In this document: one piece after another, positions 12,295 through 47,384 of the stretch
How positions within the stretch are numbered: position 1 is the stretch's first letter
Layout of the letters: every line of letters begins with the position of its first letter
DNA from: an uncultured Pseudomonadota bacterium
Lineage (GTDB): Bacteria; Pseudomonadota; Alphaproteobacteria; Rs-D84
Reading direction: 5' to 3'
Assembly: GCA_947307295.1 (NCBI GenBank)
Contig: CAMZIQ010000001.1
Span: 40,968-104,967 of the forward strand
Length of the DNA: 64,000 bases
Translations under genes and position numbers: made by a program
Notes under the pieces: generated by a model
What the model saw: the letters and a program-made list of their open reading frames with translations, nothing else
What the model was told of the DNA's origin: nothing
Databases searched by the model: none

Positions 12295-12337
12295 AAACAT
12301 TAGAAAAATCAGTCTTTTCATGATAGAATAAACCATC

Positions 12338-13300
12338 ATGAAAAGATTTTTGTTTTTTTACCTGATTTTTATTATCACTATGCCTTCGACATACGCAGGG
12401 TTAACCGCTACAAAATTTCCAAAAACAGTCGCAGACCTTTCCTTTGAACAACAAGTATATAACATGGAACAAAAATATACCCCTTTTTTAACCGAACGTG
12501 CATATCGTGAATTAGGTATTGCGCCAGGCGAAGAAATTCTTGCTGACCATATGGCCGTAGTAGCAGAAGCCGATAAATCAAACAATATATCTGATGAAAA
12601 CAATCTATTAGAAAAAAATCAACAAACATCTTCTTGTTCTGTGACTTCTACAATTGGGGGCCGTGGACCTGTTATTGAAAACAATTCTGTCACGGGCGGC
12701 TCTTGTTATCCAGCAGAAAAAGAAACTTATTTCACAAATAAGATTTTAACTACTGGAAAATATGAAAAAATTCACCCAGCACTTGAAAAGGGACTTATTA
12801 TCATGTTTAGAAAAGAAGGTCGCTGTGGAATCACCCCCGGAGACCCATGTGGATGGACATGTTTTGGTATAGGCTCTGCCCCAGGTTGTGCGGGGGTTTA
12901 CGTTAAAAACCGTGCAGAAGCAGAAGATGTTTATTATAAAAAATATTGGAAAAACCACAATTTGGATAAATTACCAGATGTAATCAGCACAGATATTTTT
13001 GTAGCAGGTGCTGGTGGTGGCACAGGAACAACCCTTTCCAGATTCAGAACTTTTTTGAAATTGCGTGCAACTAGTACCCCTGTAGATGATACGTTGATTG
13101 AAGCGGTCAAGAATTATAAAGGCGACATTCATAACGATTGGTTAAACTATCACGCCATAATTTTAGACCGTTTGGCAGAAGCTTATAAAGCAGCCGGAAC
13201 ATATACCCAGGTTAAAACCTCATGGCAAAAGGGAGTTGTTTTAACAAGAAAAAACGGGTGTCATGTTTGCCCACACGAACCACAACTCAGACAATATTAA
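12338..13300 (+). CDS. secreted Cys-rich hypothetical protein
   Basis: Signal peptide MKRFLFFYLIFIITMPSTYA and multiple Cys; no known domain recognised. Confidence 0.55.
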   Translation: MKRFLFFYLIFIITMPSTYAGLTATKFPKTVADLSFEQQVYNMEQKYTPFLTERAYRELGIAPGEEILADHMAVVAEADKSNNISDENNLLEKNQQTSSCSVTSTIGGRGPVIENNSVTGGSCYPAEKETYFTNKILTTGKYEKIHPALEKGLIIMFRKEGRCGITPGDPCGWTCFGIGSAPGCAGVYVKNRAEAEDVYYKKYWKNHNLDKLPDVISTDIFVAGAGGGTGTTLSRFRTFLKLRATSTPVDDTLIEAVKNYKGDIHNDWLNYHAIILDRLAEAYKAAGTYTQVKTSWQKGVVLTRKNGCHVCPHEPQLRQY

Positions 13301-13350
13301 AGGATAAAAATATACTTGTTTATTTTCATGAAAAAATTTAAAATACAAAC

Positions 13351-14310
13351 ATGGGAAAAAGATTAGCACTTTTTTTATTATCGCTGATTGTCGCATCCAA
13401 TGCGATGTCTGCCGATAACTTCATTCCAAAAAAGTTCAGCACCGTCACATCACATAATGATGTTTATCCGTATTTGTTAAATAATACAAAGACAAAAACA
13501 AACAAGAATACAACATCTACAAATACTATAAATTCTATATCTGCTGCTCCGATTGGCAAACGTAATGTAGTAAAAAGAAAAACTAATGCTCGTGCGGCTA
13601 CAAATATATCAAATTCTGCGAACATTGATACATCTACGCGTCGCGTTGTTCCACGGGCTCAACCTGTCTCGGCACGCGCAGCTATGACATCAAACCAAAG
13701 ACGTGTTGTAAATCGTAATTCACAAAACATCGCTGTTCGTTCTATGACACCGGGACGCGTCCGCACAACATCTTCTGCACGTGTTGTATCAAACAACAGA
13801 TCTTCAACTACGGAAAAAGTTTCATCTAAACGTTGTTTCGCAGATTACAAAGAATGTATGGAAATGTATTGTCAGCGCGAAGATACAGCATACAATCGTT
13901 GCTATTGTAGTGCAAAGCTGGCACAAATAGACTCGAAATATCAAAACAAAATTGATGATTTGATACAACAGATTGTACGATTACAATATGGTGGCACAAC
14001 AACCAGCGAAGAAATCAAAGAATATTGGGATAAAACTGTTGGTGTTTATACAAAAACAAATCCGTGGGTTAACATAGAAAACGCGTTAAACATTGACTGG
14101 GCAGACACACAAAGCCGTATCCGCGGACAAAACGCCTTTAATACAGGTCATGAATATTGCGTACAAAATTTACGTTCATGTTATTATATGGCTTCTAATA
14201 TGCGTGACGCGTATAAATCTGAAATAACACGTGATTGCGATGCGTATGAAAAAAGTCTTCAAAAGATACAAGATGCCGCCGAAAGCGTGATAGAAAGTTA
14301 TAAAAATTAA
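13351..14310 (+). CDS. secreted hypothetical protein with an N/S/T/R-rich low-complexity region and a Cys-rich C-terminal domain
   Basis: Signal peptide MGKRLALFLLSLIVASNAMSA; low-complexity linker; C-terminal Cys pattern. Confidence 0.55.
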   Translation: MGKRLALFLLSLIVASNAMSADNFIPKKFSTVTSHNDVYPYLLNNTKTKTNKNTTSTNTINSISAAPIGKRNVVKRKTNARAATNISNSANIDTSTRRVVPRAQPVSARAAMTSNQRRVVNRNSQNIAVRSMTPGRVRTTSSARVVSNNRSSTTEKVSSKRCFADYKECMEMYCQREDTAYNRCYCSAKLAQIDSKYQNKIDDLIQQIVRLQYGGTTTSEEIKEYWDKTVGVYTKTNPWVNIENALNIDWADTQSRIRGQNAFNTGHEYCVQNLRSCYYMASNMRDAYKSEITRDCDAYEKSLQKIQDAAESVIESYKN

Positions 14311-14314
14311 AAGC

Positions 14315-14500
14315 CTATTTTGATTCACACTTTAAATTGTGCGTGTAAATATTTCTGACTAAATCATCACTTATATTTTCCCAATCTGACGCATGACCAT
14401 ATATTATATCACAATCACAAATCGCCCTATTCTTTGATAGTGTATTTATCGAGCAAGATGCCACGAATATCAGCCACACCAGTTTTATATACTTTTTCAT
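14315..14500 (-). CDS. small putative lipoprotein (61 aa)
   Basis: MKKYIKLVWLIFVASCS lipobox-like signal; overlaps the next small ORF by about 74 nt. Confidence 0.3.
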   Translation of the reverse strand: MKKYIKLVWLIFVASCSINTLSKNRAICDCDIIYGHASDWENISDDLVRNIYTHNLKCESK

Positions 14501-14651
14501 GAATTTCCTTTTTATTTTGAATTAATATTTCTTGATTTTGTACATTATTTTTCAAATGTTGCATTTGACATTTAGCATCTGCAATATTTGCACCATAAAA
14601 ATAAGCCCCCATCACAAGGGCGCCTATTGCCATAATAAAATATATTTTCAT
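14427..14651 (-). CDS. small membrane/secreted protein (~75 aa)
   Basis: MKIYFIMAIGALVMGAYFYG hydrophobic N-terminus; overlaps 14315..14500 in another frame. Confidence 0.3.
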   Translation of the reverse strand: MKIYFIMAIGALVMGAYFYGANIADAKCQMQHLKNNVQNQEILIQNKKEIHEKVYKTGVADIRGILLDKYTIKE

Positions 14652-14724
14652 AATAATCGCCTTTTTAAAAATCCGCCATAACAATGGCGGATTTAAATCT
14701 ATCATAACAAGCCTTAAAAAGAAC

Positions 14725-33660: not shown

Positions 33661-36600
33661 TTAAAAGTTATATCTGAATTTCAACATACCTGTTTGAGAT
33701 GTGTAATCTTTACGAACATCTATATCATAATTGATAGAGAAATCCATTGCACGATATTTCATACCCAAACCGATACCAAATTCACCACCCAAACGATTCA
33801 AACGTTCACCACGCAAAGTATAAGAATCTACACCTGGCATTGTGACGGTTGCAACGTTTTTATCAGACAACATATCGTATTTGATTGCAGCATTTAATTG
33901 AGGGATAAATGTTGTATATTTATCAGCAACTACATTAAACGCATACTTTGCACCCAAAACGCCTGTTAAGAAATCTGTATCTTTGGATTTAATTTTAGAC
34001 CCAAAAGAATCAGTATAATCACTAGCATTTACATGCAAATAACGCAATCCCAATTCAGGTGTCACACCACTTGCAAAATTATATCCTGTCGCAACAGTAC
34101 CACCAAACGCATTAACGTCATAGTCAGCAGTTTTTGCAGTTCCCAAAACATCAGCTGTTTCAGAGAAATCAGACCAAGTATAATTGGCAACAGCATTCAC
34201 ATACCATTCTGCTGGCTTATATTGACCGTACAAGAATACTGTGTTGCTGTCGATTTCTGTATCACGTACAGAAGTGATATCAGAATGAGCAAACGAATAA
34301 CCTGCTCCAACTTTCCAAACTTTGTTGATTGTTCCGTCCATACCTGCTGCGATTCCACGGGTATATCCGCTGAACGCATCATCTTGTTTAGATTTATTGA
34401 ACAAGCCCTGTGCCCAAACACCACCAGATGTAAAGTTCACATCACCACCACTACGTCCAATCGTTGGCGCAGCCATACGAGCACCAGCCAAATTTGCTAC
34501 AGTAGTTTGAACCGAAGTAGCAACAGATTGTTTTACAGATTCATTTTCCGGATGCACCGCCTTGGCAGCATGTTCAACTTCTTGTTGTGCAATTGGTGTT
34601 GCTTCTGCCAACTTTTCTTGCATCTTTTCAGCAACTTCGTTCAACTTTTCAGACGAAGATTGTGACATACCCAAAATCGCAGCAGCACTGTTTTCAGACA
34701 AATTATTTTCTTCTGCAATTGCCTCAACAGATTTCAAAGTTGCTGTCACATCCTTGTCTTCATTTGTCCATGACAAATCATAAATTGTACTGGAAACTCT
34801 ATTTTTTGCACTTGCTAAAACTTTGTCACCAAACACATGATAAGTTCCTGCATCATTGAATATCAAAGACAATGTTCCATCACCAGCAAAAGCATCTGTC
34901 GCTGTTAATTGAGCATCACCACTTCTGACTGTTGCAATCAAAGTTCCAGCCAAATCAATTGTACCTTGGTTAATAGATGCAGTTCCGATATTCAAAGTTG
35001 CACCATTTGCGATTGACAATGTTCCATCACCAGTAATACCACCATCCATTGTGGTTGTTCCAGATGCAACTGTCAAAGAACCAACATTATGAATATCATT
35101 AGCTAAACCATTTGCTGTATTACCAGTAAATGTATTTGTCCCAGCCAAAGTAATATCACCAACATTGTAAATAGCGCCACCGTTTGTAGTTGCTGTATTA
35201 CCAGTAAACGTCACGCCATTTATACGTGCGCCATACTTTGTCACAACATTTCCTTCATCAACAGTATTGGACAAAGAATTTGCAATCGCACCACCATAAA
35301 CAGCGTTGTTTGTTGTAAATGTGCCACCATTTACTGCCAAAGAAGATTTCGCACCTGGTTGAGCGGACGAAATTCCACGTGTAGAAATCGCACCACCCCA
35401 AGTACCAGATTCATTAGATGTAAATGTAGAATTTGTTATGGTCGCAACACTGTCATCATACATAAATATTGCACCACCACCTTCATTAGAATCTGTTGAA
35501 TTTACCCCGATTACTGTACCGGTCGTCTGGTTTCCTTCAAATGCAGAACCTGTCACATTTAATATAGCATCAGAAATGATTGCTCCACCTTCTGCACCTG
35601 CTGTATTATCTGTGAAAGTGCTGTTCAAAATATCTATGGTCATACCTTGTGAATATTTATTATTGGCAAACGCCGTAATACCCATTTGACCAATCGCACC
35701 ACCAGCAGTATCTGACAGGTTGTCTTCAAATGAAGTATTGGTGATAGTCAATGTTTTCACTTTACTGGCTGCATTTTCAGGCGTAGATTGATTTGTTATA
35801 CTGCCCGATACAAGTAATGCACCACCAATTGCTACGTCTCCACCATTGGCATGGTTGTTATTAAATAATAAATTATCCAAAACAGCACTTACATTTACAC
35901 TAGATGACAAAGCGCCACCTTGTTGTGCAGTATTTCCTGTAAATTCAACACCGTTATTGATAACAAATCCATTACCGTCATAAACCGTGCCAGCCAAAGC
36001 CAAAGCACCACCTGTATTAAATGCTTTATTATCAATGAATTTTACACCAGTACCAAATGTAGGAGTTGACCCGACAGCACTGATATAAACCGCACCACCA
36101 TTTCCTTTTGTAGATGTGGCACCTGTTCCATCAAGATTAGCAAAACCTGCTTTGTTTTCTCTGAATATAACATTATTACCTATATGTAAATTTCCATCTT
36201 TGCCAGGATTGCTTGCTGGACTCAGTCCGCCGGATGTCAAAGCACCACCACCTGCTGTCTTTGCAAGGTTATTTGTAAATGTTGTTCCATCTGCTATGGT
36301 CAAAGTATTTTGGTCTCCAGCAATAGCGCCGCCGCCAGAACCGCCGCTAAAAGACGAAACATTTTGTTCAAACGAACCAGACACGGTCACATTACCGCCG
36401 CCTGACAAACTTACAACAGCACCTCTTGATGCTGTATTTCCTGTAAATGTCCCATCTATATTTGCCTCAGAAGCCAAAATATAAAATACAGATTTTTGAT
36501 TATTTTCAGCTTCTATATTTGTCGCAACAAGATTAACATTTTCGCCATAGACCAAACTATAAGCTCCGCTGTTGCCTTCGAAATGCACATTATCAAGAAC

Positions 36601-37563
36601 TATATTATTCTTTGTTGTAGAACTGCTGTTATCCGCATATATAAACGCACCATTAACCGCACTATTAAACCCAGATACATTTACATTTCTTACTGTTAAA
36701 TCTGTATTTGGGCTAACAGATAAATTATCAGTAAAAGCCGTCACCTGACCATTTGAAATAGTGTATGCCTTAGAATTCGTTTCCAACGTCGGACTAGCTT
36801 TCAAATCTGTTGGTGTCGTATCATAAGCAGCATAATATTCTTTGCCATCTATTATATAAGTATCATGTGGCTTCGCATTTATCGTATAAGTAAACAACTC
36901 ATGTTCTTTGATTGTATAATGTCCTTCGCCGTCAGAAACAAATCCATCCAAAGCTACTTGATAAGAGCTACTAGAACTTTTTGTAGAATAAAACTTTGTT
37001 GTCGTTGTAATATCTTCTGGTGTAGGGTTAGCTTGATTTACATACGCATAAACCAAATTGTTGTTTTCATCTCTAAACGCAACATATTTACCAGAACTGT
37101 TTTCTGCAGAATAAGTTAATGTCTTTGTAGTTCCTTCCGCATCTATAGAACATTTTGGCTCTGCATTAGTACCAAACTTCATATAAACTGTTCCAATTTC
37201 TTCAGTTCTTTCATAATCAGAATATATCGCACTTCCCACATTTATAGAAGAATAATAAAACACAGTGTCTGTTCCATCCATTGTTGCCCTATACACAGTA
37301 TAAGAACTTGATTTTTCAGGCAACGCAACAGGAGTATTCAAAACAGATATATTGTGATTACCGCCATCTATAACCGTGTTAGAATTAACGGTGTTATATG
37401 GTGTATTAAAAGAAATATCCCCTGCTAAATTAATATTTCCACCATTTGTTAGTGCTGTATTAAAATCTGCCACATTAGCGACATTCACAGCCATTGCAGG
37501 CATCACCAATAATGCTGGTAATACAGAAACACCAACTAATAAGTTGTGAAATTTTTTATTCAT
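33661..37563 (-). CDS. type Va autotransporter with a Pmp/Sca-like passenger (GGA[IL] and FxxN repeat motifs) and a C-terminal beta-barrel translocator
   Basis: Signal peptide MNKKFHNLLVGVSVLPALLVMPAMA. Many passenger motifs such as GGAI, FTDN, FTSN, FTGN. The C-terminal ~280 aa are beta-barrel-like and end in …FRYNF. Confidence 0.75.
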   Translation of the reverse strand: MNKKFHNLLVGVSVLPALLVMPAMAVNVANVADFNTALTNGGNINLAGDISFNTPYNTVNSNTVIDGGNHNISVLNTPVALPEKSSSYTVYRATMDGTDTVFYYSSINVGSAIYSDYERTEEIGTVYMKFGTNAEPKCSIDAEGTTKTLTYSAENSSGKYVAFRDENNNLVYAYVNQANPTPEDITTTTKFYSTKSSSSSYQVALDGFVSDGEGHYTIKEHELFTYTINAKPHDTYIIDGKEYYAAYDTTPTDLKASPTLETNSKAYTISNGQVTAFTDNLSVSPNTDLTVRNVNVSGFNSAVNGAFIYADNSSSTTKNNIVLDNVHFEGNSGAYSLVYGENVNLVATNIEAENNQKSVFYILASEANIDGTFTGNTASRGAVVSLSGGGNVTVSGSFEQNVSSFSGGSGGGAIAGDQNTLTIADGTTFTNNLAKTAGGGALTSGGLSPASNPGKDGNLHIGNNVIFRENKAGFANLDGTGATSTKGNGGAVYISAVGSTPTFGTGVKFIDNKAFNTGGALALAGTVYDGNGFVINNGVEFTGNTAQQGGALSSSVNVSAVLDNLLFNNNHANGGDVAIGGALLVSGSITNQSTPENAASKVKTLTITNTSFEDNLSDTAGGAIGQMGITAFANNKYSQGMTIDILNSTFTDNTAGAEGGAIISDAILNVTGSAFEGNQTTGTVIGVNSTDSNEGGGAIFMYDDSVATITNSTFTSNESGTWGGAISTRGISSAQPGAKSSLAVNGGTFTTNNAVYGGAIANSLSNTVDEGNVVTKYGARINGVTFTGNTATTNGGAIYNVGDITLAGTNTFTGNTANGLANDIHNVGSLTVASGTTTMDGGITGDGTLSIANGATLNIGTASINQGTIDLAGTLIATVRSGDAQLTATDAFAGDGTLSLIFNDAGTYHVFGDKVLASAKNRVSSTIYDLSWTNEDKDVTATLKSVEAIAEENNLSENSAAAILGMSQSSSEKLNEVAEKMQEKLAEATPIAQQEVEHAAKAVHPENESVKQSVATSVQTTVANLAGARMAAPTIGRSGGDVNFTSGGVWAQGLFNKSKQDDAFSGYTRGIAAGMDGTINKVWKVGAGYSFAHSDITSVRDTEIDSNTVFLYGQYKPAEWYVNAVANYTWSDFSETADVLGTAKTADYDVNAFGGTVATGYNFASGVTPELGLRYLHVNASDYTDSFGSKIKSKDTDFLTGVLGAKYAFNVVADKYTTFIPQLNAAIKYDMLSDKNVATVTMPGVDSYTLRGERLNRLGGEFGIGLGMKYRAMDFSINYDIDVRKDYTSQTGMLKFRYNF

Positions 37564-37631
37564 TATAAAATCTCCTTTCTTCATACATATAAAATGTTAT
37601 CACATTATTTTGATAAATCAAATCATCATTA

Positions 37632-37660: not shown

Positions 37661-38395
37661 TTATTTGTTGTTTTTAAAATACAATTTTGCATATTCTGCC
37701 ATCACATTTATCATCATTCCTCGATAACCGAATTTATCCCAATTATGTGAAGCTGTTTCCAATTCCACCCTGAAATCTTCAAAAGAAGCCTGTTCCCAAT
37801 CTATAAAGAAAGTGATATCAAACGTTTTTGTATCCAACATAAAATTTTGCCAAATATCTTTTTGAAACCACCCATACAAAAAACCAGGTTTGTCTTCGGG
37901 GTCAGATTTCAAATCACGAAGTTCCACCGGATCACTTTTACCAATTACATACAAAAAATTAGCAATTTGTTTTGCGATATGTACCTGATGTTGCCCAATA
38001 ACAGATGGCTTCACATCTGTTAACAATGTTCCGTGTGCAAATTCATATTTGCGCACATAGATGTTTTTATAAGGGATTATTTTCATCAGCGGTATTTTAA
38101 TTGGCGAAATTCCATAGAAAGCATCAACTATGCGTTTTTCACGAATTGCGACATCTTTTCCATCTGTTAAAAGAGGAAACTTAAACACATGTTTATTATT
38201 TAAAATCACAACAAAATTTTTACAACCATATCCAACCATAGTTTTTATTTTGCGTTGCTTCATATTTTTAGCAAAATGACGGACAAAACGAATATATTCG
38301 CGAATCTGCGGATAACGAATCATCGTCCGCACTTTGTCACGCAAAGGTTTAGACCATATAAAACCACATACTATATTAGATATAAAATGTCGCAT
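37661..38395 (-). CDS. small atypical kinase-fold protein (Kdo/WaaP/choline-kinase-like?), 244 aa
   Basis: Choline-kinase-like FIDWEQASF motif and a degenerate catalytic-loop-like QKDIWQN; lysine in HVFKFP. Weak. Confidence 0.35.
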   Translation of the reverse strand: MRHFISNIVCGFIWSKPLRDKVRTMIRYPQIREYIRFVRHFAKNMKQRKIKTMVGYGCKNFVVILNNKHVFKFPLLTDGKDVAIREKRIVDAFYGISPIKIPLMKIIPYKNIYVRKYEFAHGTLLTDVKPSVIGQHQVHIAKQIANFLYVIGKSDPVELRDLKSDPEDKPGFLYGWFQKDIWQNFMLDTKTFDITFFIDWEQASFEDFRVELETASHNWDKFGYRGMMINVMAEYAKLYFKNNK

Positions 38396-38477
38396 TTTTT
38401 GCCTTTTATTCTGATGAATATAATCATAGGATAAAAAATACCCTTATGCAAACCAAAAAACTATTACGTTCTTTGCA

Positions 38478-40385
38478 CTATTTTAATTTATACTTAAAAA
38501 CACGAATTCCGAACAAATCTACCTTTAGATAATTGTTATTAGATACATAATGTCTGTAAATCGGTATACCAAATATAGTATATTTCAAATTCCGTTTAAT
38601 TTTTGTATTAGATAAATATTCACAACTAATAACTTTCTGACCGATATAAGATTTTATTTCATTATAGATATTGTTATATTTGGTTTCACAAGACTTATTT
38701 GTGCCGATACATTCAAGAACTTTGCACAAAGAATATGCATCATCCCAACGATATGGTTTTTCACGAAATTCTGGTGTCCCCAGTCCATATAAAAAACCCT
38801 TTGTTTTTATCAAAAAATCTAATTCTTTATAATTTGATTTACGGACAGCCAATTGGAAATCTATTAATTTCACACGACCACCAGACAAGACCAAATTTTT
38901 CAAAGTAATATCCCGATGAACAACATCAGAATCTTTTAAGCATTTAAATATCTGATAAATATCATCCAACCAAATATTCCTTTGTTTATCAGATAATTTG
39001 TGAGTTTTTAAAAACTCGTGTAAATTTTCACCTTCTGTCCATTCGTATGCAACAAAATGTTCGTTTGGGCAATCTCGATAATACATCGGCCTAATAAAAT
39101 GAACTTTATCCATATCGTACAGAATTTTTCCCATCTGATATTCATTTACATATATGCCAGGGATATCGCTGATTTTTATAAACATACGTGTTCCGTCTGT
39201 ATCGTATCCAGATGCAAAGACATTGTATGCCGCGTTCACAGAATCAGTATAAACTGTTTGAACATTTTTAAAACCAAAATTTGATTCAAGATATTTTTTA
39301 TATTCATTAAATTTTACAAGCTTTTCAGAATAATACACAGACGTATCATCCGGACGTGTGAAATTATAATTATTTTTATTCATAAAACCAGTTAACAATT
39401 GAAAATACAAATCAAACGGTGATGCGTACTTTTTTACATCATATTTCTTATCCAGTTTTAATTTTTTGAACAAATCCGCTATTTTATCATAATAATCAGA
39501 AGCAATTTTTTGCTTATTAATTAAACAATGATAAATCAACATATAAAAATAATTTTCTGTATTTGGGACGCGTATTACATTTCCATAATATTCAAATGTT
39601 TTGAATATATTGTTATCCCATTTTTTATCATGATAGTTATTATTTATATCCCATAAATCAATGTAAATACCCTTATCTTTTACTTTTATTAAATAGTGTG
39701 GTCTTGGTCTGTCTGTGAAATGCGCCTGCCCGCCAACAATCCAACGCGCAGCATCATAATTTTGAACCATAATATCAATATCACCATGTTCAGAACTATT
39801 CAAAGTTTGTTCCAGATTTTCAAAACCACGTAAAACTATATAATCTGTTGTTGCATTTAATGTATAAAAAAACTGTTTCAAACTGTCCCAACCATGTGCA
39901 CCGGTTATATCACGATGAACAGTTTTTACTTTGCCATCCCATTTTTTCGGTAAAGATTTTTTCAAATCATCATAATTTAACCCCAATAATAACGCAGAAT
40001 CATGATTCGTTTCATTAACAGAATTTGTAGTATGAATTTTGTGTCCACCGCGCGTCCATTGTCTGTATTTTTGTTTCAATGAAAATATATTTACGTTCAC
40101 ACGTTCATGCCCACGCGAAGTTTCAACCATTTCATATTTTGGTTTATTATCACGAACCACCAACAACAAAAACCCAGTTGTGCCACATTCCTTTTCTTTT
40201 TCAGAACGATTAGGCAAATTCACCCCGTAAAATCTGCTGAAATTATCAGACACACAATCACAAGACCAATGGACATCATACGCAGCCATTATATCCAAAT
40301 GAGATTTAACATCTTCTATAATCTCATTTTCTTTATATCTTGCATTTGCCCAAAGGACTATAAGGTGTATTTCTGGATTTTTCAT
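38478..40385 (-). CDS. two-domain protein: N-terminal LicD/pol-beta-like nucleotidyltransferase-fold region fused to a eukaryotic-like protein kinase domain (635 aa)
   Basis: HGDIDIMV (DxD) motif in the N-terminal half. HRDITLKNLV catalytic loop and DFQ (DFG-like) in the C-terminal half. Confidence 0.5.
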   Translation of the reverse strand: MKNPEIHLIVLWANARYKENEIIEDVKSHLDIMAAYDVHWSCDCVSDNFSRFYGVNLPNRSEKEKECGTTGFLLLVVRDNKPKYEMVETSRGHERVNVNIFSLKQKYRQWTRGGHKIHTTNSVNETNHDSALLLGLNYDDLKKSLPKKWDGKVKTVHRDITGAHGWDSLKQFFYTLNATTDYIVLRGFENLEQTLNSSEHGDIDIMVQNYDAARWIVGGQAHFTDRPRPHYLIKVKDKGIYIDLWDINNNYHDKKWDNNIFKTFEYYGNVIRVPNTENYFYMLIYHCLINKQKIASDYYDKIADLFKKLKLDKKYDVKKYASPFDLYFQLLTGFMNKNNYNFTRPDDTSVYYSEKLVKFNEYKKYLESNFGFKNVQTVYTDSVNAAYNVFASGYDTDGTRMFIKISDIPGIYVNEYQMGKILYDMDKVHFIRPMYYRDCPNEHFVAYEWTEGENLHEFLKTHKLSDKQRNIWLDDIYQIFKCLKDSDVVHRDITLKNLVLSGGRVKLIDFQLAVRKSNYKELDFLIKTKGFLYGLGTPEFREKPYRWDDAYSLCKVLECIGTNKSCETKYNNIYNEIKSYIGQKVISCEYLSNTKIKRNLKYTIFGIPIYRHYVSNNNYLKVDLFGIRVFKYKLK

Positions 40386-40411
40386 ATTATTTTTCCATCA
40401 CAAAAGTTATA

Positions 40412-41269
40412 TTATTTCCAAAACATTTTGCATATAGGTATGCACTCGAATAACACAATCCAATTATTTTTAATCTTTACCAATGGGATAAATCCAAACA
40501 AACGCAATCTAAATTGAGTTCCTGGAACCATCATTTTTGATGCCACACGACGATATTCAGGATATTTAGATGATATTTCCATACGAATATTTGCAGCAGC
40601 CTCTTCACGAGCATCATTCATACGCTTAGACGTATTATTTTCAAACCATCTGTAATGAATTAAAATTTCTTGAAAATTATAAAAATGAGTCACTTCCATC
40701 AAACGTGTCCACAAACGATAATCTTCAGCCGGGGTATAAAATTCTTCATATTCAATATTATTATCAACCAAAACAGATTTACGTATCATTGATGCAGAAT
40801 GTATCACGAAACAATTTTCAGTCAGATGAACACGAATCTGCGAATCCATTTCAGGAGTTTTACATAAATCATCATAATTATCCCCAAAATAATGAGCCCA
40901 ACCAGACACAACACCAATATGTGGATGAGAATCCAGATATGCAACTTCTTTTTCCAAACGTTCTGGCACAGATACATCATCATGGTCGAATATAGCCAAA
41001 TATTCCCCCGCAGCCATTTTCACCAACCTATTCCGCGAAGGCGTAATCCCCATATTTTTTGTATTTTTTATATATTTTACACGTTTATCTTTTTTAGCAT
41101 AATCTTTGACAATCTTTTCAATTTCTTTATTATCAGGGCTGTCATTTAAAATCAAAAATTCAAAATCTGTAAAAGTCTGATTTAAAATAGATTCAATCAT
41201 TTCACGCAAATGCGTTGGATTAGTATTATAAATCGGCGTTAAAACAGATACTTTTGGTGCTTTTGGCAT
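40412..41269 (-). CDS. family 2 glycosyltransferase
   Basis: VSVLTPIYN, ILNDSPDN and AIFDHDDV (DxD) GT2-A motifs. Confidence 0.85.
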   Translation of the reverse strand: MPKAPKVSVLTPIYNTNPTHLREMIESILNQTFTDFEFLILNDSPDNKEIEKIVKDYAKKDKRVKYIKNTKNMGITPSRNRLVKMAAGEYLAIFDHDDVSVPERLEKEVAYLDSHPHIGVVSGWAHYFGDNYDDLCKTPEMDSQIRVHLTENCFVIHSASMIRKSVLVDNNIEYEEFYTPAEDYRLWTRLMEVTHFYNFQEILIHYRWFENNTSKRMNDAREEAAANIRMEISSKYPEYRRVASKMMVPGTQFRLRLFGFIPLVKIKNNWIVLFECIPICKMFWK

Positions 41270-41384: not shown

Positions 41385-41430
41385 CAATTCACGAACCAAC
41401 ATAATCAAAATCAGACAAGAGATTGATGAA
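41385..41430. repeat. island repeat part 2, copy A (caattcacgaaccaacataatcaaaatcagacaagagattgatgaa)
   Basis: 46-nt element, 70–85% identical to copies at 41894, 42557 and 43336. Confidence 0.7.
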
Positions 41431-41453
41431 TTTGTTTTAAAATATTATCAGCG

Positions 41454-41798
41454 TTATTTTTTACGCCCTCTACCCCCGTCTAATAAAACGATGTGTGTTT
41501 CAATCATCCCGCTTTTCATACGTCTACGTGCTACCGTAAAACCTCGTTCATAAGATCTTTGAAAATTTTTCAATATGTTTTCAATGTTACCAATTTCAAT
41601 TATACTGCGAACCGCGTTGTTATATCCTGGTTTCTCGGTTGGCCCAATAGAAAGAACTTTTTCCACATGCCACTTTACAGCACTAATTTCCTGATCAGTC
41701 AATGTGCGTCCCAAACCTTCATTTTTTAAGCTTGTCAGCGATAAATTTTGTTTTTTCATTGAATCATTTGCTTTTTGCAATTCTTTATTGGCATCCAT
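41454..41798 (-). CDS. hypothetical protein (114 aa)
   Basis: ORF flanked by island repeats A and B; no recognisable motif. Confidence 0.45.
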   Translation of the reverse strand: MDANKELQKANDSMKKQNLSLTSLKNEGLGRTLTDQEISAVKWHVEKVLSIGPTEKPGYNNAVRSIIEIGNIENILKNFQRSYERGFTVARRRMKSGMIETHIVLLDGGRGRKK

Positions 41799-41893
41799 AA
41801 TTTATCCTTTTTTATATTATTACACCCCTATTATATAACACAAAAAAACATATTGTCAATATTTATTTAAAAAATTCACTTTCGCCACCTATG

Positions 41894-41939
41894 CAATTCA
41901 CGAGCCGATATAATCAAAATCGGAAAAGAGATTGATGAA
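41894..41939. repeat. island repeat part 2, copy B
   Basis: caattcacgagccgatataatcaaaatcggaaaagagattgatgaa. Confidence 0.7.
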
Positions 41940-41975
41940 ATGAAAGACACATTAAACCTGCCAAATTTAATTTGA

Positions 41976-42491
41976 TTACGGAATAAATGTTTCAATATAT
42001 TTCCAACCGTTTTCATCTAAAACGAAATGAAAACATTGGGCATTTTGAATACCGTCAACTTTATGTCCGCACGCCCAACATAGTGCACGTGTTACGCCAC
42101 CATGAGAAGCAATCGCAATATTTTCATGTTTATCTGTCTTAACAATTTGTTCTAGGTAATTTTTTATAAGTTTGAAATTATCGTTTATTTGCTTTTTCTT
42201 TTCTTCGTCTTCAACATCCCAAAACCAAAATATCGCTTCTTTGAGGGCGTCATTGGTTACAATTTTGATATCTGTACCATTTGTGATTGCAATTTTTGCG
42301 GTATCTATTGCACGTCTGTAAGGACTTGAATAAACAATCTGAATATTTTTATCTTTAAAAAATTCGTGCAACTTGGTTGCCTGTATAACACCTAAATCTG
42401 TCAACCAAGCATCAATACCTGTGCCATACCGAACACCAACTTCGTTTTCATTTGTTTGTCCATGCCTGAAAAAATAAAAATGCCTTTCCAT
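41976..42491 (-). CDS. histidine phosphatase family protein (PGAM/SixA-like)
   Basis: RHGQT catalytic motif at the N-terminus and …ASHGG…; 171 aa. Confidence 0.8.
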   Translation of the reverse strand: MERHFYFFRHGQTNENEVGVRYGTGIDAWLTDLGVIQATKLHEFFKDKNIQIVYSSPYRRAIDTAKIAITNGTDIKIVTNDALKEAIFWFWDVEDEEKKKQINDNFKLIKNYLEQIVKTDKHENIAIASHGGVTRALCWACGHKVDGIQNAQCFHFVLDENGWKYIETFIP

Positions 42492-42523
42492 GAAATAACC
42501 TTTTCAAAAATTATATCACAACA

Positions 42524-42600
42524 GTTCGAATATGACAAATTTTCGATATTTTACATGATTCACAAACCACCATAATCAAAATCAAACAAGAAATAATAGA
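42524..42600. repeat. island repeat copy C (truncated part 1 fused to part 2)
   Basis: gttcgaatatgacaaattttcgatatttt followed by gattcacaaaccaccataatcaaaatcaaacaagaaataataga. Confidence 0.65.
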
Positions 42601-42614
42601 TTTCAAAAACAAAT

Positions 42615-42633: not shown

Positions 42634-43206
42634 ATGCAAACAAATATAGATTTCTTTAACAATTTGTTCCGACAGGACTTCGTTTCTGAATACAATCATT
42701 CTAATTATATTGATAAATTTGGTGGTAAAAATTTCTTTCATATGGATTGCAGCGGTTTCGTTTATTGGTGCTTGGCACAAATGGGTTATAAACGGGCGTT
42801 GGTTGAATTGAAAAATTTTTTAAAAGAAAACGATTTTATAAAAATAAATAGATTTTTCTGTAAAGACTTTGCATTTATTCATGAACATAAAAATAAATTA
42901 ACCTATTGGGATTTCATGGACAGACCTATTTCTGGTTCTATTATGGTTGTTGTATTTCCTGATGGTAATGGTCATTGTATGTTTATTGATAACATCATCG
43001 ATAATAATAAAACTAAACTATGTTTGTGGGTGATTGATTCTACCCAATACCCACATAAAAGCGACACCAGAACAGATGAAGAAACAGGCATAGGTATTGG
43101 CGAAATTGAAATAACAACTAAAAACGGCGATTGGTTCTATGATTCTGGCAACAAATCATTACCAATAAGAAAAGCAGAAATATATTTTATATCACCCAAA
43201 AAATAA
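42634..43206 (+). CDS. NlpC/P60-like (papain-fold) cysteine peptidase/amidase-like protein
   Basis: DCSGFVYWC catalytic-Cys motif with a downstream His (GNGHCMFID); 190 aa. Confidence 0.5.
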   Translation: MQTNIDFFNNLFRQDFVSEYNHSNYIDKFGGKNFFHMDCSGFVYWCLAQMGYKRALVELKNFLKENDFIKINRFFCKDFAFIHEHKNKLTYWDFMDRPISGSIMVVVFPDGNGHCMFIDNIIDNNKTKLCLWVIDSTQYPHKSDTRTDEETGIGIGEIEITTKNGDWFYDSGNKSLPIRKAEIYFISPKK

Positions 43207-43209
43207 AAA

Positions 43210-43382
43210 GTTTGAAAATGACAATTTTTTGATATTTTTCCAAAACAAAACTTTCGAACTCGGTGAAAGTATTAGCAAACAAATAAAAAACCGCCCTGAA
43301 ACGAACGATTGTCTATCTTGGTTGTGCTATCTGTGCAATTTGCGAGCCTATATCATCAAAACTGGACAAGAGATTAATGAAG
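43210..43382. repeat. island composite repeat copy D (part 1 palindrome, degenerate tRNA-3'-end-like segment, part 2)
   Basis: gtttgaaaatgacaattttttgatatttttccaaaacaaaactttcgaactcggtgaaag … tcttggttgtgctatctgtg … caatttgcgagcctatatcatcaaaactggacaagagattaatgaa. Confidence 0.7.
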
Positions 43383-43427: not shown

Positions 43428-44015
43428 TTATTTACCCTTGTATTCACTTACCAGTTTAGAAAAAATCAAATGATCTGTCCATTTACCGTTGGATAGTTTC
43501 GCATATTCTCTTAAACGGCCATCCAAATGATACCCACTGCTTAAAATAGATTTTAGTGACCTTTCATTGTTTTCCATACATTGACGACTCATACGGTGTA
43601 TTTTTAAATCGTTGAATGTGATTTTTTCCAAAAGATTATGGATTTCATGATTAAAACCATGACCCCATGCTGATTTAACAAACCAAACATTACCTGGGTT
43701 AACAGTATCATTTTCTTTATTATACGAAACGCCATGAAAGCCGATCAATTTACCACCATGAAACACATACCATAAAACCCCATTGAATTTAAATGCTTCT
43801 GCGTAATTTTTCATTGTTTCAAATGTTTCATCCAATGATTCTGGCAAAGGTTTATCATATTTTGGTGAATAATGTATAAAAGCAAAATCTTCTGGATTTT
43901 CATTTTTAATTGCTTCCCACACCAGTTCAGCATTTTGCATTGTTGGTTCAAGAATACGAAGTTCCAATCTTTCTGTTTTGTGATTTTTTTTGAAGAATTT
44001 AAAAAACTTTTCCAT
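43428..44015 (-). CDS. GNAT family N-acetyltransferase (RimJ/RimL-like)
   Basis: GNAT fold pattern (…VLWYVFHGGKLIGFHGV…NPGNVWFV…); 195 aa. Confidence 0.75.
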   Translation of the reverse strand: MEKFFKFFKKNHKTERLELRILEPTMQNAELVWEAIKNENPEDFAFIHYSPKYDKPLPESLDETFETMKNYAEAFKFNGVLWYVFHGGKLIGFHGVSYNKENDTVNPGNVWFVKSAWGHGFNHEIHNLLEKITFNDLKIHRMSRQCMENNERSLKSILSSGYHLDGRLREYAKLSNGKWTDHLIFSKLVSEYKGK

Positions 44016-44030
44016 ATTATCACCTTTTTA

Positions 44031-44801
44031 TTATTTTTCCGCTTCTGCTATTTTTTTACGTAATTCAGGTTCGTTTTGCTGAACAAAATTATATGACTTT
44101 TCCATAAAATCGTATATGTCTTTACGTTCCAGATATAACTTTTTCATAGTATCAAACAGCAATTTTCCATTTATTTCCATCTCATAAAAATATGAATATG
44201 CTATGTGTTTTGGTTGCTTAACCAAATTTCCAATTTCGGAATTACGAATTATGGTTTCAACAACTATTTCCGATAAAACCCATTTCAAATGTGGGGTATC
44301 ATATTCGTCAGGATTGTCTTTGAAGTATTCGTGCCAAATATAAAACCAAACAAAATGTGTTATTTCATGCAATGCAGCAAATATCGCGTATTCTGGCTCG
44401 AACTTATAGAAAACATCAAAAGTGTATTCTTGTACATTTCGGGGACAAACAGGGTCTAATCCAACGAAACCTACCATATCATTCAAAATTTTTGTACAAT
44501 CATACCCAAAAGTTGATGAATACGCTTGATTTAACTTTTTTGCTACTGGTATCCAATTCGTTTGAAACATTTTTATTGAATTCTGTATATCGTCAGAGTG
44601 CAAAACCGATAATTTTTCCATTTCTTTTCGTATATATTTCAAACGTTCAGATTCTGGTAATTTTCTTGCATATTCGTAATTTAAAGACGGAAACACTTCA
44701 AAAAGCCGTTTAGACCACCAAGCTGGTTTATCATCTTGCTGTAAAAACAAAATAAAATCCAAATCCTCTTCAAAATCTTTTTGTTTCCAAGTTAGTTGCA
44801 T
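44031..44801 (-). CDS. hypothetical protein with an HExxH motif (putative zinc-dependent hydrolase), 256 aa
   Basis: ALHEITHFVWF contains HEITH; 16 nt upstream of the GNAT gene (probable operon). Confidence 0.45.
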   Translation of the reverse strand: MQLTWKQKDFEEDLDFILFLQQDDKPAWWSKRLFEVFPSLNYEYARKLPESERLKYIRKEMEKLSVLHSDDIQNSIKMFQTNWIPVAKKLNQAYSSTFGYDCTKILNDMVGFVGLDPVCPRNVQEYTFDVFYKFEPEYAIFAALHEITHFVWFYIWHEYFKDNPDEYDTPHLKWVLSEIVVETIIRNSEIGNLVKQPKHIAYSYFYEMEINGKLLFDTMKKLYLERKDIYDFMEKSYNFVQQNEPELRKKIAEAEK

Positions 44802-44845
44802 TGTACCAATCCTTTAATAGCTGTAGTACGATTGTATCACAAAAA

Positions 44846-45010
44846 GTTCGAAAATGCCAAAAAATTGCGATTTTTCAAAATTAAACTTTCGAACTCGATG
44901 AAAAACTTGCGATTCCAACAAAAACCGCACTTATGGACGGTTATGTAAACTATGGTTGGGGTACACGGTGCCTTGATACACAATAATAAAAATCAAAAAA
45001 ATCTCCAGTT
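44846..45010. repeat. island composite repeat copy E (part 1 palindrome, exact 16-nt tRNA-Gln 3'-end repeat, degenerate part 2)
   Basis: gttcgaaaatgccaaaaaattgcgatttttcaaaattaaactttcgaactcgatgaaaaac … tggttggggtacacgg … cacaataataaaaatcaaa. Confidence 0.7.
44953..44968. repeat. exact 16-bp direct repeat of the tRNA-Gln 3' end (tggttggggtacacgg); att-like
   Basis: Identical to 45195-45210, which is the reverse complement of the tRNA 3' terminus including CCA. Confidence 0.8.
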
Positions 45011-45156
45011 GTCGATTTTTTAATATTTTTCTAATTGTCTATCTGCGTACTCGCTCGCCCCCATTACAATGGTGGCTGCGCGGCAATCGTAACGATTTTG
45101 TTTTACAAAATCTACTGCTTGTCGAACCTGCGATTCTCGTCTCGTTATCACCAAAA

Positions 45157-45186
45157 CCAAAAATTAAAACCCCCACAAGGGGTGTT
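45157..45186 (-). terminator. hairpin plus T-run immediately downstream of the tRNA-Gln 3' end
   Basis: On the minus strand: aaacaccccttgtggggg followed by ttttaatttt. Confidence 0.5.
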
Positions 45187-45194
45187 TAAATTCT

Positions 45195-45268
45195 TGGTTG
45201 GGGTACACGGACTCGAACCGCGATATACAGAGTCAGAGTCTGCTGTTCTACCATTAAACTATACCCCA
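45195..45268 (-). tRNA. tRNA-Gln (anticodon CUG)
   Basis: Hand-folded cloverleaf: 7-bp acceptor with a U1:A72 pair typical of bacterial tRNA-Gln (UGGGGUA…UACCCCA), D-arm GUUU/GAAC, anticodon loop CUCUGAC, T-arm CGCGG-UUCGAGU-CCGUG, discriminator A, encoded CCA. Confidence 0.85.
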
Positions 45269-45304
45269 ATTCAGCCCTATATTATATATGTATTATTTGT
45301 TTTT

Positions 45305-46030
45305 TCAATCAAATATTTTCAAATCTTTAAAGTCATTATGGCTGGCTTTTGGAATTAATTTTATATCTGTTTCATCTGCCCACGTTTTTGCTAATTCATA
45401 TGGTACAACATCATCACGTTCACCAACAAAATGGGTTTGTGCAACGGCTGGCAAAGTTTCCATATTCAAAGATTCATCTAGCGGTTCATCACCAAAATAT
45501 TCTGTCCATTTTTTATGATTTAAAACCCCAGCAATCGTTATCCATTTTTCAAAATTCATTTTTGGATTTTGTTTTATAATCAGACCAGAAACCATCGCAC
45601 CACCAGAATATCCAATAATCGTTATTTTTTTATTTTTCGCGATTTGCTTAATCACCCTGCTTTCTGCATCTATGACTTTCTGTGAAAATCGCCCATCTGT
45701 CCAATCTGATTCGTTACAATTTTTATCCATTATAAATTGGCAAGGTCTTGCAACATAAACAACGTTTTCAAAATTATCAGCCACAGCTAAATCTCGCACA
45801 AAAGTTCCACGTGGTGTTGGATTACTTGTCGGTTGACCGTATGAATCAAAAGCATATCCATCGCCTTCGATATAAACATGAATTTGATTATTTTCAGGAT
45901 TATTTATTTTCTGCCAAGTTGCGATTTTATAAGAATCTGTTTGCACTGGTACATATTGAAAGTCATCTGGCGCAACCCAGTTTGCGCCTGCACATCCAGA
46001 CAAAAAAAGAATCAAAAACAATTTTTTCAT
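45305..46030 (-). CDS. lipoprotein with an alpha/beta-hydrolase (esterase/lipase-like) fold
   Basis: Lipobox LFLILFLSGC and GxSxG nucleophile motif IIGYSGGAMV. Start at MKKLF. Confidence 0.6.
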   Translation of the reverse strand: MKKLFLILFLSGCAGANWVAPDDFQYVPVQTDSYKIATWQKINNPENNQIHVYIEGDGYAFDSYGQPTSNPTPRGTFVRDLAVADNFENVVYVARPCQFIMDKNCNESDWTDGRFSQKVIDAESRVIKQIAKNKKITIIGYSGGAMVSGLIIKQNPKMNFEKWITIAGVLNHKKWTEYFGDEPLDESLNMETLPAVAQTHFVGERDDVVPYELAKTWADETDIKLIPKASHNDFKDLKIFD

Positions 46031-46145: not shown

Positions 46146-47384
46146 ATGAAAATAAAACCATTTGCAGGTGTAAGACCACCAAAAGATTTAGCAAAAGAAG
46201 TCGCATCACGTCCTTATGACGTTTTGAATTCTGTTGAAGCAAAGACTGAAGCTGGTGAAAAATCTTTATTGCACATTATTAAACCAGAAATTGATTTTGA
46301 CCCAATTGCCGATGAACACGAACAAAAAACTTATGACAAAGCTGTTGAAAATTTCAAAAAATGGCAAGAACGTGGCTGGCTGACCCAAGACGACAAAGAA
46401 ATGTATTACATCTATGCACAAACTATGGATGGTCGCACTCAATATGGTTTGGTAGCCGCAGCAAATGTTGATGATTACATGACCGGCAAAATTAAAAAAC
46501 ACGAATTAACCAGAAAAGAAAAAGAAGACGATCGTATGATTCACGTTCGTATTCAAAATGCTAATTTGGAACCTGTGTTCTTTGCTTATCCTGATGTTGC
46601 TGAAATGAATGATTTGGTTTCTGATTGGATTGCAAAACACGAACCAGAATATGACTTTGTTGCAGAAGATGGATTTGGTCATACTTTCTGGAAAATTGAT
46701 GACGATGCAACAAATGCTCGCATCACAGAAATTTTTGCAAAAGTTCCTGCGTTTTATGTTGCAGACGGTCACCACAGAACCGCAGCTGCTGCACGTGTTG
46801 GTGCTGAAAAACGTGAACAAAACCCAAATCACACAGGCAACGAAGAATATAACTATTTCTTGGCTGTAATTTTCCCAGAAAGCCAATTACACGTTATCGA
46901 CTATAACCGCGTAGTCAAAGATTTAAACGGATTGTCTGCTGATGAATTTATCGAAAAATTGCGTGAATCTTTTGAAGTAAAAGAAATGGGTTCAGAAATT
47001 TACCATCCAAATAAACTACACAACTTTTCTATGTATCTGGATGGCAAATGGTATTCTTTGACAGCCAAAGCTGGGACTTATAATGACAACGATCCAATCG
47101 GCGTTTTAGACGTGACAGTATTATCCAATTTGGTGTTTGACAAGATATTGAATTTGGGTGATTTGCGCACATCAAAACGCATTGACTTTGTCGGTGGAAT
47201 TCGCGGTCTTGGCGAATTGAAAAAACGCGTAGATTCTGGTGAAATGGTTGTTGCGTTTGCTTTGTACCCTGTGACAATGCGTCAAATTATTGACATTGCA
47301 GACACAGGCAACATTATGCCTCCAAAGACAACTTGGTTTGAACCAAAATTACGTAGTGGTTTGGTAATTCACAAATTATCATAA
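46146..47384 (+). CDS. DUF1015 family protein (412 aa)
   Basis: N-terminal MKIKPFAGVRPPKDLAKEVASRPYDVLNSVEA matches the DUF1015 signature as recalled; typical length. Confidence 0.65.
   Translation: MKIKPFAGVRPPKDLAKEVASRPYDVLNSVEAKTEAGEKSLLHIIKPEIDFDPIADEHEQKTYDKAVENFKKWQERGWLTQDDKEMYYIYAQTMDGRTQYGLVAAANVDDYMTGKIKKHELTRKEKEDDRMIHVRIQNANLEPVFFAYPDVAEMNDLVSDWIAKHEPEYDFVAEDGFGHTFWKIDDDATNARITEIFAKVPAFYVADGHHRTAAAARVGAEKREQNPNHTGNEEYNYFLAVIFPESQLHVIDYNRVVKDLNGLSADEFIEKLRESFEVKEMGSEIYHPNKLHNFSMYLDGKWYSLTAKAGTYNDNDPIGVLDVTVLSNLVFDKILNLGDLRTSKRIDFVGGIRGLGELKKRVDSGEMVVAFALYPVTMRQIIDIADTGNIMPPKTTWFEPKLRSGLVIHKLS

Follow-up and report, generated by a model that had tools for sequence, protein, structure and literature searches.

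How does the end of a tRNA gene come to be repeated, letter for letter, a short way behind that gene, and what is the stretch that separates the two copies? The question is raised by a 64,000-nucleotide (nt) stretch of DNA from an uncultured alphaproteobacterium (contig CAMZIQ010000001.1, positions 40,968-104,967; this whole 64-kilobase (kb) stretch is referred to as the window), in which the sequence TGGTTGGGGTACACGG occurs exactly twice, at 44953-44968 and 45195-45210, the latter site being the 3′ end of tRNA-Gln(CTG), the sole tRNA of the window (ARAGORN, Rfam). Allowing up to two mismatches recovered the same two window sites and no others, against an expectation of zero (100 shuffles). 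A previous reading, made from the letters alone and here called the sequence-only reading, had described an exact 16-base-pair (bp) repeat of the tRNA-Gln 3′ end, CCA included, around a 226-bp segment, and had taken it for the classic attL/attR signature of integration into a tRNA gene; the repeat is present as described, with two window copies and none attributable to chance. The explanation that we favour, and to which we give an about even chance of being right, is that the 226 bp and one copy of the repeat together form a cargo-less unit of an array on the 3′ end of tRNA-Gln, recombined site-specifically by a remote enzyme.

Anatomy of the gene-less unit

The tRNA-Gln gene lies on the minus strand, so that the plus-strand sequence TGGTTGGGGTACACGG is the reverse complement of the final 16 nt of the tRNA; the earlier designation "plus strand" is thus right for the coordinates of the repeat and wrong for the strand of the gene. 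These 16 nt, here termed the slot, are tRNA positions 61-76 and consist of 5 nt of the 3′ strand of the T-stem, 7 nt of the 3′ strand of the acceptor stem, the discriminator (1 nt), and the encoded CCA (3 nt). Read along the tRNA strand, the unit runs in the order terminator, inverted copy of the tRNA end, pseudo T-arm, module A, GAGT, module B, and 16-nt slot. The features of the locus in that direction are as follows.

45281-45308, minus strand: promoter-like site of the tRNA, TTGAAA-16-TATAAT, 11/12 to consensus, directly upstream of the tRNA
45195-45268, minus strand: intact tRNA-Gln(CTG) with encoded CCA (ARAGORN; 67.5 bits with the Rfam tRNA model)
45195-45210, minus strand: proximal slot copy, tRNA positions 61-76
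45160-45194, minus strand: terminator opening the unit, stem at 45169-45183 (promoter/terminator scan of both strands)
45143-45159, minus strand: degenerate inverted copy of the tRNA 3′ end, TGGTTTTGGTGATAACG, 11/16
45122-45136, minus strand: pseudo T-arm GAATCGCAGGTTCGA, given as tcgaacctgcgattc in the sequence-only reading, a direct copy of the variable loop, T-stem and start of the T-loop
45053-45122, minus strand: module A, helices P1-P5 (covariance model R1, 68 bits, E 1e-13)
44969-45048, minus strand: module B, an AT-rich palindrome of ~80 nt (single-stranded DNA (ssDNA) fold, z = -4.6)
44953-44968, minus strand: distal slot copy, 16/16 to the tRNA end

The absence of genes from the enclosed 226 bp (44969-45194) was borne out: no credible open reading frame (ORF) lies within them, and the only ORF that touches them (45035-45358, plus strand) runs antisense across tRNA-Gln. 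The terminator-like hairpin reported within the segment is also real, and is tRNA-Gln's own intrinsic terminator on the minus strand; because A-rich and T-rich runs flank it, it is terminator-like on the plus strand as well. A degenerate copy of the island's "left arm" could likewise be located, TCGAACCTGCGATTC ... CAAAACC at 45122-45136 paralleling 44884-44925 in the leader of the next unit.

Slot, terminator and inverted copy together form one long palindrome. As ssDNA, this tRNA end/terminator/inverted copy arrangement folds with z = -4.0 in the window and with z = -6 to -10 in four related loci (L088, L008, L085, and L094; related loci are cited by such numbers throughout), where it makes a hairpin of ~75-80 nt. 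Many units hold such an inverted copy just past their terminator; in these four loci it is near-perfect against the tRNA of its own locus (for example, GGGCGCACGGATC in L094, GGGGGGCAACTGGATC in L008, and GGGGCGAAAGGAT in L085). The pseudo T-arm tracks the local tRNA as well, reading GGTCCGA in L092, whose tRNA-Tyr has the unusual GGTCCGAAT.

Module A has the invariant motifs AAGTAGA, CGTTACG, GCAG, and CGAG, and a comparison of 10 loci revealed compensatory changes at 10 of the 20 pairs predicted for it. Elsewhere, its covariance model found 12 complete matches of 64-91 bits and one interrupted copy of 43.6 bits, and the 13 strong copies always have the orientation of the slot that closes their unit. 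With one G-U cell against two A-C cells, there is no strand-specific G-U bias, which is compatible with a folded DNA site, and the folding strand cannot be assigned. The arms of module B lie at 45025-45042 and 44976-44994, and its terminus, ...GTATCAAGGCA, abuts the distal slot. When the window region and five related loci were compared with Rfam at E <= 1, only tRNAs were matched, and neither module A nor module B. The 242-nt stretch made up of the 226 bp and the distal slot folds better than shuffled sequences on both strands (z = -3.7 and -4.5), and its minimum-free-energy fold pairs its two ends. No convincing or conserved promoter was found for the unit on either strand; an antisense-RNA promoter within module B was considered and rejected as a general feature, the 9/12 plus-strand site of the window being unconserved elsewhere.

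A conserved family that follows the local tRNA

The gene encoding a DUF1015 protein that flanks the locus (46146-47384) has relatives of 84-92% identity in uncultured gut Alphaproteobacteria, several of them Candidatus Enterousia (L001-L012), and the tRNA-Gln locus differs from one relative to another. L002, the closest relative with an identical 16-mer, has one copy of it and no extra segment; L004 and L012 likewise have a single copy each, and L004 lacks the unit. L008, by contrast with these three, repeats its own 16-mer, TGGTTGGGGCAACTGG, 188 bp apart around a segment homologous to that of the window, and L009 repeats its own at 15/16, 177 bp apart. As the segment of L008 is homologous while its repeat is different, the repeat follows the tRNA while the segment is conserved. 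Conservation of the segment in relatives, which the sequence-only reading had regarded as a sign against integration, is thus formally present, but it leaves mobility standing because the repeat changes with the host tRNA.

A metagenome search with the last 26 nt of module B as the pattern yielded 19 loci from rumen and gut samples, and protein-context look-ups added L105-L110. Modules were found behind seven isoacceptors, namely Gln(TTG), Gln(CTG), Pro(TGG), Tyr(GTA), Ser(TGA), Ser(GGA), and Val(CAC), and the ordered arrangement, with its conserved sequence and covarying helices, recurs at >20 loci behind these seven tRNA types. In 13 of 16 tRNA loci, the 16 nt that end the local tRNA recur downstream with 12 or more positions in agreement; these copies stand in constant register, directly after AGGCA(C) at a module B end or GGGAA(T) at a module A end, and are perfect (16/16) in five loci (the window, L008, L094, L107, and L011). 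Slot length is fixed to within 15-17 nt across loci, with the start at position 61 and the end at CCA, and the repeat runs past CCA in L092 and L095. Mismatches are concentrated in the first 1-5 nt beside the unit end, as hybrid sites would predict. Tandem copies of units occur in L094 and L095. The family is thus a conserved, non-coding, modular one of uncultured gut Alphaproteobacteria (Ca. Enterousia and relatives). For this reason, the suggestion that the 226 bp are a mere attachment arm of the neighbouring unit is not upheld, since they belong to a conserved structured family of their own; of the alternative that they are a minimal or decayed unit, "minimal" can be kept, as an inserted unit of the neighbouring island, and "decayed" cannot.

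Insertion of units is seen in an empty/filled pair. Compared with L093, both L094 and L090 have one unit and one slot extra, placed exactly where tRNA-Gln(TTG) ends and measuring 179 bp from start to start, while their downstream units and cassette are collinear and nearly identical; the remaining differences among the three are insertions or deletions of whole modules. Insertion of the bracketed segment is further indicated by the single copy in L002 and by the sequence past the window's distal slot (TAGTTTACAT...TTTTTGTTGGAAT), which resembles the tRNA-adjacent sequence of the unit-less L004. In L105/L106, the window's first cassette gene and its leader are found behind a unit whose slot matches tRNA-Pro at 12/16. 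The 46-nt cassette-end repeat D2, which has four copies in the window (43336, 42556, 41894, and 41385), ends in ...CAACCA in tRNA-Gln arrays and in ...CGACCA in a tRNA-Pro array, from which it follows that at least some exchanges fall within the last 5-6 nt, near CCA. Contigs of metagenome-assembled genomes (MAGs) end inside arrays in L001, L003, L006, L085, and L090, and the arrays would account for contig breaks at tRNA loci.

Several smaller observations concern the same loci. Two tandem 175-bp gene-less units are present in L003; in both L001 (1-100) and L003 (1-3400), the array is inverted relative to the hydrolase and DUF1015 genes and lies between these and an off-contig tRNA, and the NlpC/P60-like cassette, which shares 70% identity with window 42634-43206, stands in flipped orientation. 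Comparison of L093 (~300-470) with L094 (1184-1270) showed a module A split by a ~73-bp insert with TCG flanks, the insert being the reverse complement of a variant module in L003 (~120-175) and L095 (~3600-3680); the modules, it seems, are in turn hit by further small insertions. At L091 (Ga0310690_10344721, ~240-560), a direct duplication with 79/80 identical positions, far longer than the slot, takes in a terminator and the 3′ terminus (...FGAKFGIDF-stop) of what appears to be an outer-membrane protein gene.

Outside these genomes, blastn of 44800-45200 against plasmid and phage collections gave no match, scans of viral contigs with the module A and module B patterns returned nothing, and four window proteins had no exact matches on record. 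The pattern of the cassette leader (described below) found one true boundary in viral contigs, in L083 (IMG/VR 3300033463_010496), where leader, hairpin and decayed slot at 11100-14674 lie beside phage-like genes on a contig classed as viral; a second match, L103, was discarded as a coincidence within a coding region. The phage-like genes of L083 are marked by a DnaB-like helicase domain and by a tail-fibre match that is weak and below threshold, its cargo comprises RgpF-like, NADAR, NT5C, and acetyltransferase-like genes, and no integrase is visible within the 14.7 kb covered. Arrays may abut prophages, or this contig may be misclassified.

Possible routes of insertion and likeness to known systems

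Under site-specific recombination by a remote enzyme, gene-bearing and gene-less units alike would join directly behind the CCA, each with the terminator hairpin first, a fixed end (...GGCA(C) or ...GAAT) last, and then the 16-nt slot. If insertion always occurs at the CCA, the window's gene-less unit is the youngest and the exact repeat is its duplicated attachment or target sequence. A unit would be excised as a circle, and the junction of slot, terminator and inverted slot would form a long palindrome which, analogous to an integron attC or a folded single-stranded attP, would present the tRNA-end duplex. The partner of this palindrome in recombination would be the tRNA gene's identical slot, and the recombinase would be encoded elsewhere in the genome. 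What we observe is the repeat, the anatomy, the family, the agreement of the repeat with each local tRNA, and one empty/filled pair; the circular intermediate, the enzyme class, and the parts played by the palindrome, module A and module B are what we infer here. We favour recombination because under it the inverted copy, the hybrid-looking slots, the nearness of exchanges to CCA, and the absence of a local recombinase are all explained.

Within the window, the search for an enzyme returned no Phage_integrase, recombinase, transposase, Cas1, or reverse transcriptase among 58 ORFs (Pfam, NCBIfam), nor any intI or other tyrosine recombinase (Pfam). An all-against-all comparison of ORFs, which were not individually scanned against family libraries, showed no protein family recurring near related arrays, and neither cas1 nor polB turned up in the window or in those loci that were examined. 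For canonical attC sites, the R''/R' boxes (RYYYAAC/GTTRRRY) gave eight loose matches in the window, none with complementary arms or at unit boundaries. Two further schemes were tried and set aside. An IS200/IS605 or TnpB-style scaffold with a 16-nt guide had suggested itself because 16 nt of target, next to a T-loop motif, follow directly on the unit end; such a guide would target the resident tRNA gene, and there is no TnpA/TnpB. Reverse transcription primed by a tRNA, with the 16-mer resembling a primer-binding site, is likewise rejected, no reverse transcriptase having been found and the repeat sometimes extending beyond CCA (L092, L095).

Several points weigh against our favoured explanation. 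As the window yielded no recombinase and the related arrays share no recurrent candidate in their surroundings, the inserting enzyme is purely hypothetical, and no circular junction or excision product was observed. Near-identical modules A and B at many tRNAs demand frequent retargeting of both slot and inverted slot, which the explanation does not supply, and the window's own inverted slot is degenerate (11/16). The strong conservation of modules A and B could stem from a cellular function and not from mobility. Finally, in L091 the two modules are flanked by an 80-bp duplication and are not at a tRNA.

As in tRNA islands and prophages, an intact tRNA is accompanied by a direct repeat of its 3′ part (here 16/16); those elements carry a tyrosine integrase gene within them, usually beside one attachment (att) site, and use one or very few tRNAs through a fixed att core, whereas no integrase is present among the 58 window ORFs and seven isoacceptors are used here, each with its local 16 nt. 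The attL/attR reading can therefore be retained in so far as a tRNA-derived repeat brackets an inserted unit, but "classic" overstates the case, since there is no integrase in 64 kb, modules occur at many tRNAs, and the target has an inverted copy; a single integrase with a fixed att site is insufficient, given the many tRNA targets and the inverted target copy within the unit. Parallels are also found among tandem tRNA elements. Tycheposons are tRNA-linked islands with partial tRNAs and degenerate remnants, and cis-mobilizable elements formed by accretion and the tandem ssrA islands of Dehalococcoides are further integrase-less derivatives of tRNA-targeting elements arranged in tandem. Shared with these are the intact tRNA at one end and the repeat of its 3′ part at the other, the pushing of older elements away from the tRNA by newer ones, and units without a recombinase of their own. 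The units described here differ in being far smaller (about 0.2-1.6 kb), many of them gene-less, in carrying structured non-coding modules and an inverted target copy, and in using at least seven tRNA types with no integrase seen near any array.

Integrons and CALINs (clusters of attC sites lacking integron-integrases) hold single-gene cassettes, mostly in one orientation and some without an ORF, that are inserted at a fixed end of the array and have an imperfect palindrome at each junction. The arrays behind tRNAs likewise consist mostly of single-gene cassettes largely in one orientation, with insertion at a fixed end and ORF-less units, and their junction palindromes fold as ssDNA (z = -4 to -10), a likeness that is a structural analogy only. 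In contrast to integrons, neither R''/R' boxes nor intI are present, a tRNA 3′ end takes the place of attI as platform, the cassettes have their own promoter and inverted-repeat leader, and the junction palindromes are built from a tRNA end and a transcription terminator. Palindromic miniature elements include repeats like miniature inverted-repeat transposable elements (MITEs), such as the Correia and enterobacterial repetitive intergenic consensus (ERIC) repeats, and the Rickettsia palindromic elements. Module B, which is conserved between genomes, resembles them as an AT-rich palindrome of ~80-95 nt whose arms measure ~19 nt; unlike a MITE, the whole unit, which occurs once in the window, has no terminal inverted repeats, module B alone being palindromic, and unlike miniature elements in general, every module B retrieved is tied to a slot and to the 3′ ends of tRNAs or genes instead of being dispersed between genes, with one copy in the window. 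Overall, the units work like tRNA-anchored tandem islands and integron arrays and share the target geometry of casposons, while lacking what defines each of these classes.

The casposon likeness underlies the main rival, a transposition that itself creates the repeat, which we regard as rather unlikely. An integrase would nick one strand at the T-loop/T-stem border and the other just past the CCA and would join the unit between the nicks, after which gap repair would duplicate 16 bp; formally, Cas1-family enzymes act in this way when they integrate casposons, or spacers into clustered regularly interspaced short palindromic repeats (CRISPR), the T-loop here taking the part of the "leader" and positions 61-76 that of the "repeat". 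A precedent has been published for the casposase of A. boonei, which produces a 15-bp duplication beside the TpsiC-loop part of tRNA-Pro and for which polar tandem arrays are possible (PMC5137440). The likeness to casposons lies in a leader, the TpsiC-loop region of a tRNA gene, with a segment of ~15 bp behind it that insertion duplicates, in polar tandem arrays divided by that segment, and in a preference for palindromic targets (PMC5137440). Where casposons have a target-site duplication of ~14-15 bp, the present units show a 16-nt slot in constant register beside the T-loop, which may be made on insertion or carried by the unit. Transposition would be the simplest route by which one element could gain many exact repeats, and it agrees with the constant slot length and register at seven tRNA types, with the near-identical unit ends, and with the position of the newest units at the tRNA-proximal copy while older slots decay. 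The units, however, have no terminal inverted repeats, their ends (AGAATTTAAAC... and ...GTATCAAGGCA) not being inverted repeats of one another, and no cas1, polB or transposase gene accompanies them in the window or the loci examined. Moreover, only 5 bp of the casposon duplication fall within its tRNA gene, whereas the 16-nt slot lies wholly inside the tRNA; the present hosts are bacteria, namely gut Alphaproteobacteria, and the units measure 0.2-2 kb as opposed to ~10 kb or more; the inverted target copy and the tRNA-tracking pseudo T-arm are left unexplained; and both the mismatches beside the unit end and the 80-bp duplication of L091 fit a fixed stagger poorly.

Three other explanations are less likely than either recombination or transposition. 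A resident non-coding RNA gene or tRNA 3′ trailer, whose 5′ inverted copy pairs with a 3′ end that imitates the tRNA end up to the CCA, as a tRNA-like acceptor/T minihelix, and whose repeat is kept by selection, is improbable: the conserved helices of module A with their compensatory changes, the folding of the 242-nt stretch above shuffles on both strands with its ends paired, the terminator after each unit, and the tracking of the local tRNA by inverted and direct copies alike would all suit it, but a strong terminator separates tRNA and unit, the only promoter candidate is weak (9/12, plus strand) and unconserved, there is neither an Rfam family nor a G-U strand bias, and mobile DNA is indicated by presence/absence and module shuffling among close relatives, by the tandem copies of L094 and L095, and by the link with gene cassettes. 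It is also quite improbable that the distal 16-mer is an ordinary relic, the attR scar of a larger integrase island of which internal deletion left 226 bp. A tRNA 3′-end repeat beside an AT-rich accessory island (GC content 0.30-0.32 against 0.35-0.40) is the textbook picture of such an event, and tRNA islands of the tycheposon type often hold partial tRNAs and degenerate remnants; ordered, conserved modules at >20 loci and seven tRNA types are nonetheless unlike random decay, and no integrase fragment is detectable in the window. Very improbable, lastly, is a decayed tandem duplicate of tRNA-Gln (a pseudo-tRNA) or a chance repeat: the segment does contain a T-arm-like piece and an exact tRNA 3′ end, but this is the 3′ part alone, split by ~150 nt of modules A and B, the modules also stand behind unrelated tRNAs, and chance is excluded by the zero copies predicted from shuffles.

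Alongside recombination by a remote enzyme, we put forward tentatively, as a possibility that is not a likely one, an undescribed insertion system of gut Alphaproteobacteria whose non-coding parts are these units, the inverted copy and modules A and B forming a re-programmable recognition or recombination site. The T-loop would then be the leader and positions 61-76 the segment exchanged or duplicated; the recognition site would be read as folded DNA or RNA, and the element and its cassettes would colonise many tRNA genes through a host or distant enzyme.

If the array explanation is true, gut Alphaproteobacteria with small genomes assemble accessory genes into arrays behind their tRNA genes, with acetyltransferases, phosphatases, hydrolases, and glycosyltransferases as cargo, and these arrays grow from short self-contained units without a local integrase, mixing traits of integrons, casposon arrays, and tRNA islands. 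A 16-nt repeat equal to the local tRNA end, together with an internal inverted copy of it, lies outside the textbook tRNA att site, and these two sequences offer a concrete handle for an enzyme hunt. The window's unit is the simplest member, in which the requirements of the site are visible without cargo.

The cassette array beyond the unit

Beyond the distal slot, the array continues with gene-bearing units, whose features are as follows.

44915-44952, minus strand: second terminator-like hairpin, TAGTTTACAT...GCGGTTTTTGTTGG, opening the next unit
44831-44896, minus strand: cassette leader, with an inverted repeat and an extended -10 promoter
43428-44801, minus strand: first gene cassette, encoding a 256-amino-acid (aa) unknown protein (44031-44801) and a GNAT acetyltransferase (43428-44015)
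43198-43381, minus strand: next unit boundary, with D2 at 43336-43381, a decayed slot at 43319-43334 (10/16), a decayed hairpin, and a leader copy
41385-42601, minus strand: older unit boundaries, with D2 at 41385-41430, 41894-41939, and 42556-42601

With growing distance from the tRNA, the match between slot and tRNA end falls from 16 and 16 to 10 of 16 and then to background. The older D2 copies separate single-gene cassettes for a 114-aa ORF, a histidine phosphatase, and an NlpC/P60-like protein. D2 was examined as a coding sequence and rejected, since its plus-strand reading, NSRxxIIKIGxEIDE..., meets a stop 8-10 codons on and has no consistent upstream ORF; codon-like variation with the downstream stop is nevertheless seen in three window copies and L003, and D2, which lies in no complete ORF, also has the look of a stretched T-arm (GGTTCG-CG-AAT). 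It may be a gene fragment or a recombination arm.

The inverted repeat of the leader consists of GAGTTCGAAAGTT (44884-44896) ... ATTTTCGAAC (44846-44855) and is overlapped by the extended -10 promoter TTGGCA-18-TACAAT (44831-44860). The leader recurs at 43198-43289 in the window and in L003, L008, L084, L088, L093, L099, L100, and L105. Across leaders, a 10-bp inverted repeat, GTTCGAAAGT ... ACTTTCGAAC, with arms ~30 nt apart, straddles the -35 region, and L099 shows a compensatory change in it (GTTCGAGAG ... TTCTCGAAC). The shared leader has the appearance of a common operator or of a second site for recombination.

A homologue of the first cassette protein with 87% aa identity and the same leader is found behind tRNA-Pro in L105/L106. 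The 256-aa protein itself has no match in Pfam or NCBIfam and contains an HExxH-like motif (HEITH). Its family comprises ~100 clusters, the five source-named matches all being MAGs labelled "Alphaproteobacteria bacterium"; more distant homologues lie in a core context (L104, L107-L110), with Exo_endo_phos and PD-(D/E)XK proteins as neighbours, and elsewhere the gene is a tRNA-linked cassette.

The island as a whole (~37.6-45.2 kb) has a GC content of 0.30-0.32, compared to 0.35-0.40 in its flanks. At its far end (37661-41269), three genes encode an unknown protein of 244 aa, a protein of 635 aa whose C-terminal part is a protein-kinase domain, and a glycosyltransferase of family 2, and this block, which has no internal unit boundaries, may be one large old cassette or resident DNA. 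The far border is marked by a 1307-aa autotransporter with Chlamydia PMP repeats (33661-37584), homologues of which (33-38% identity) occur in L007, L008, and L009, that of L008 also on the far flank of its array. On the other side, the closest relatives of the DUF1015 protein outside gut Alphaproteobacteria are from Bacteroidales (Alistipes, Rikenellaceae, and Muribaculaceae; 71-82% identity), which suggests, on sequence similarity, gene transfer between gut Bacteroidales and these Alphaproteobacteria.

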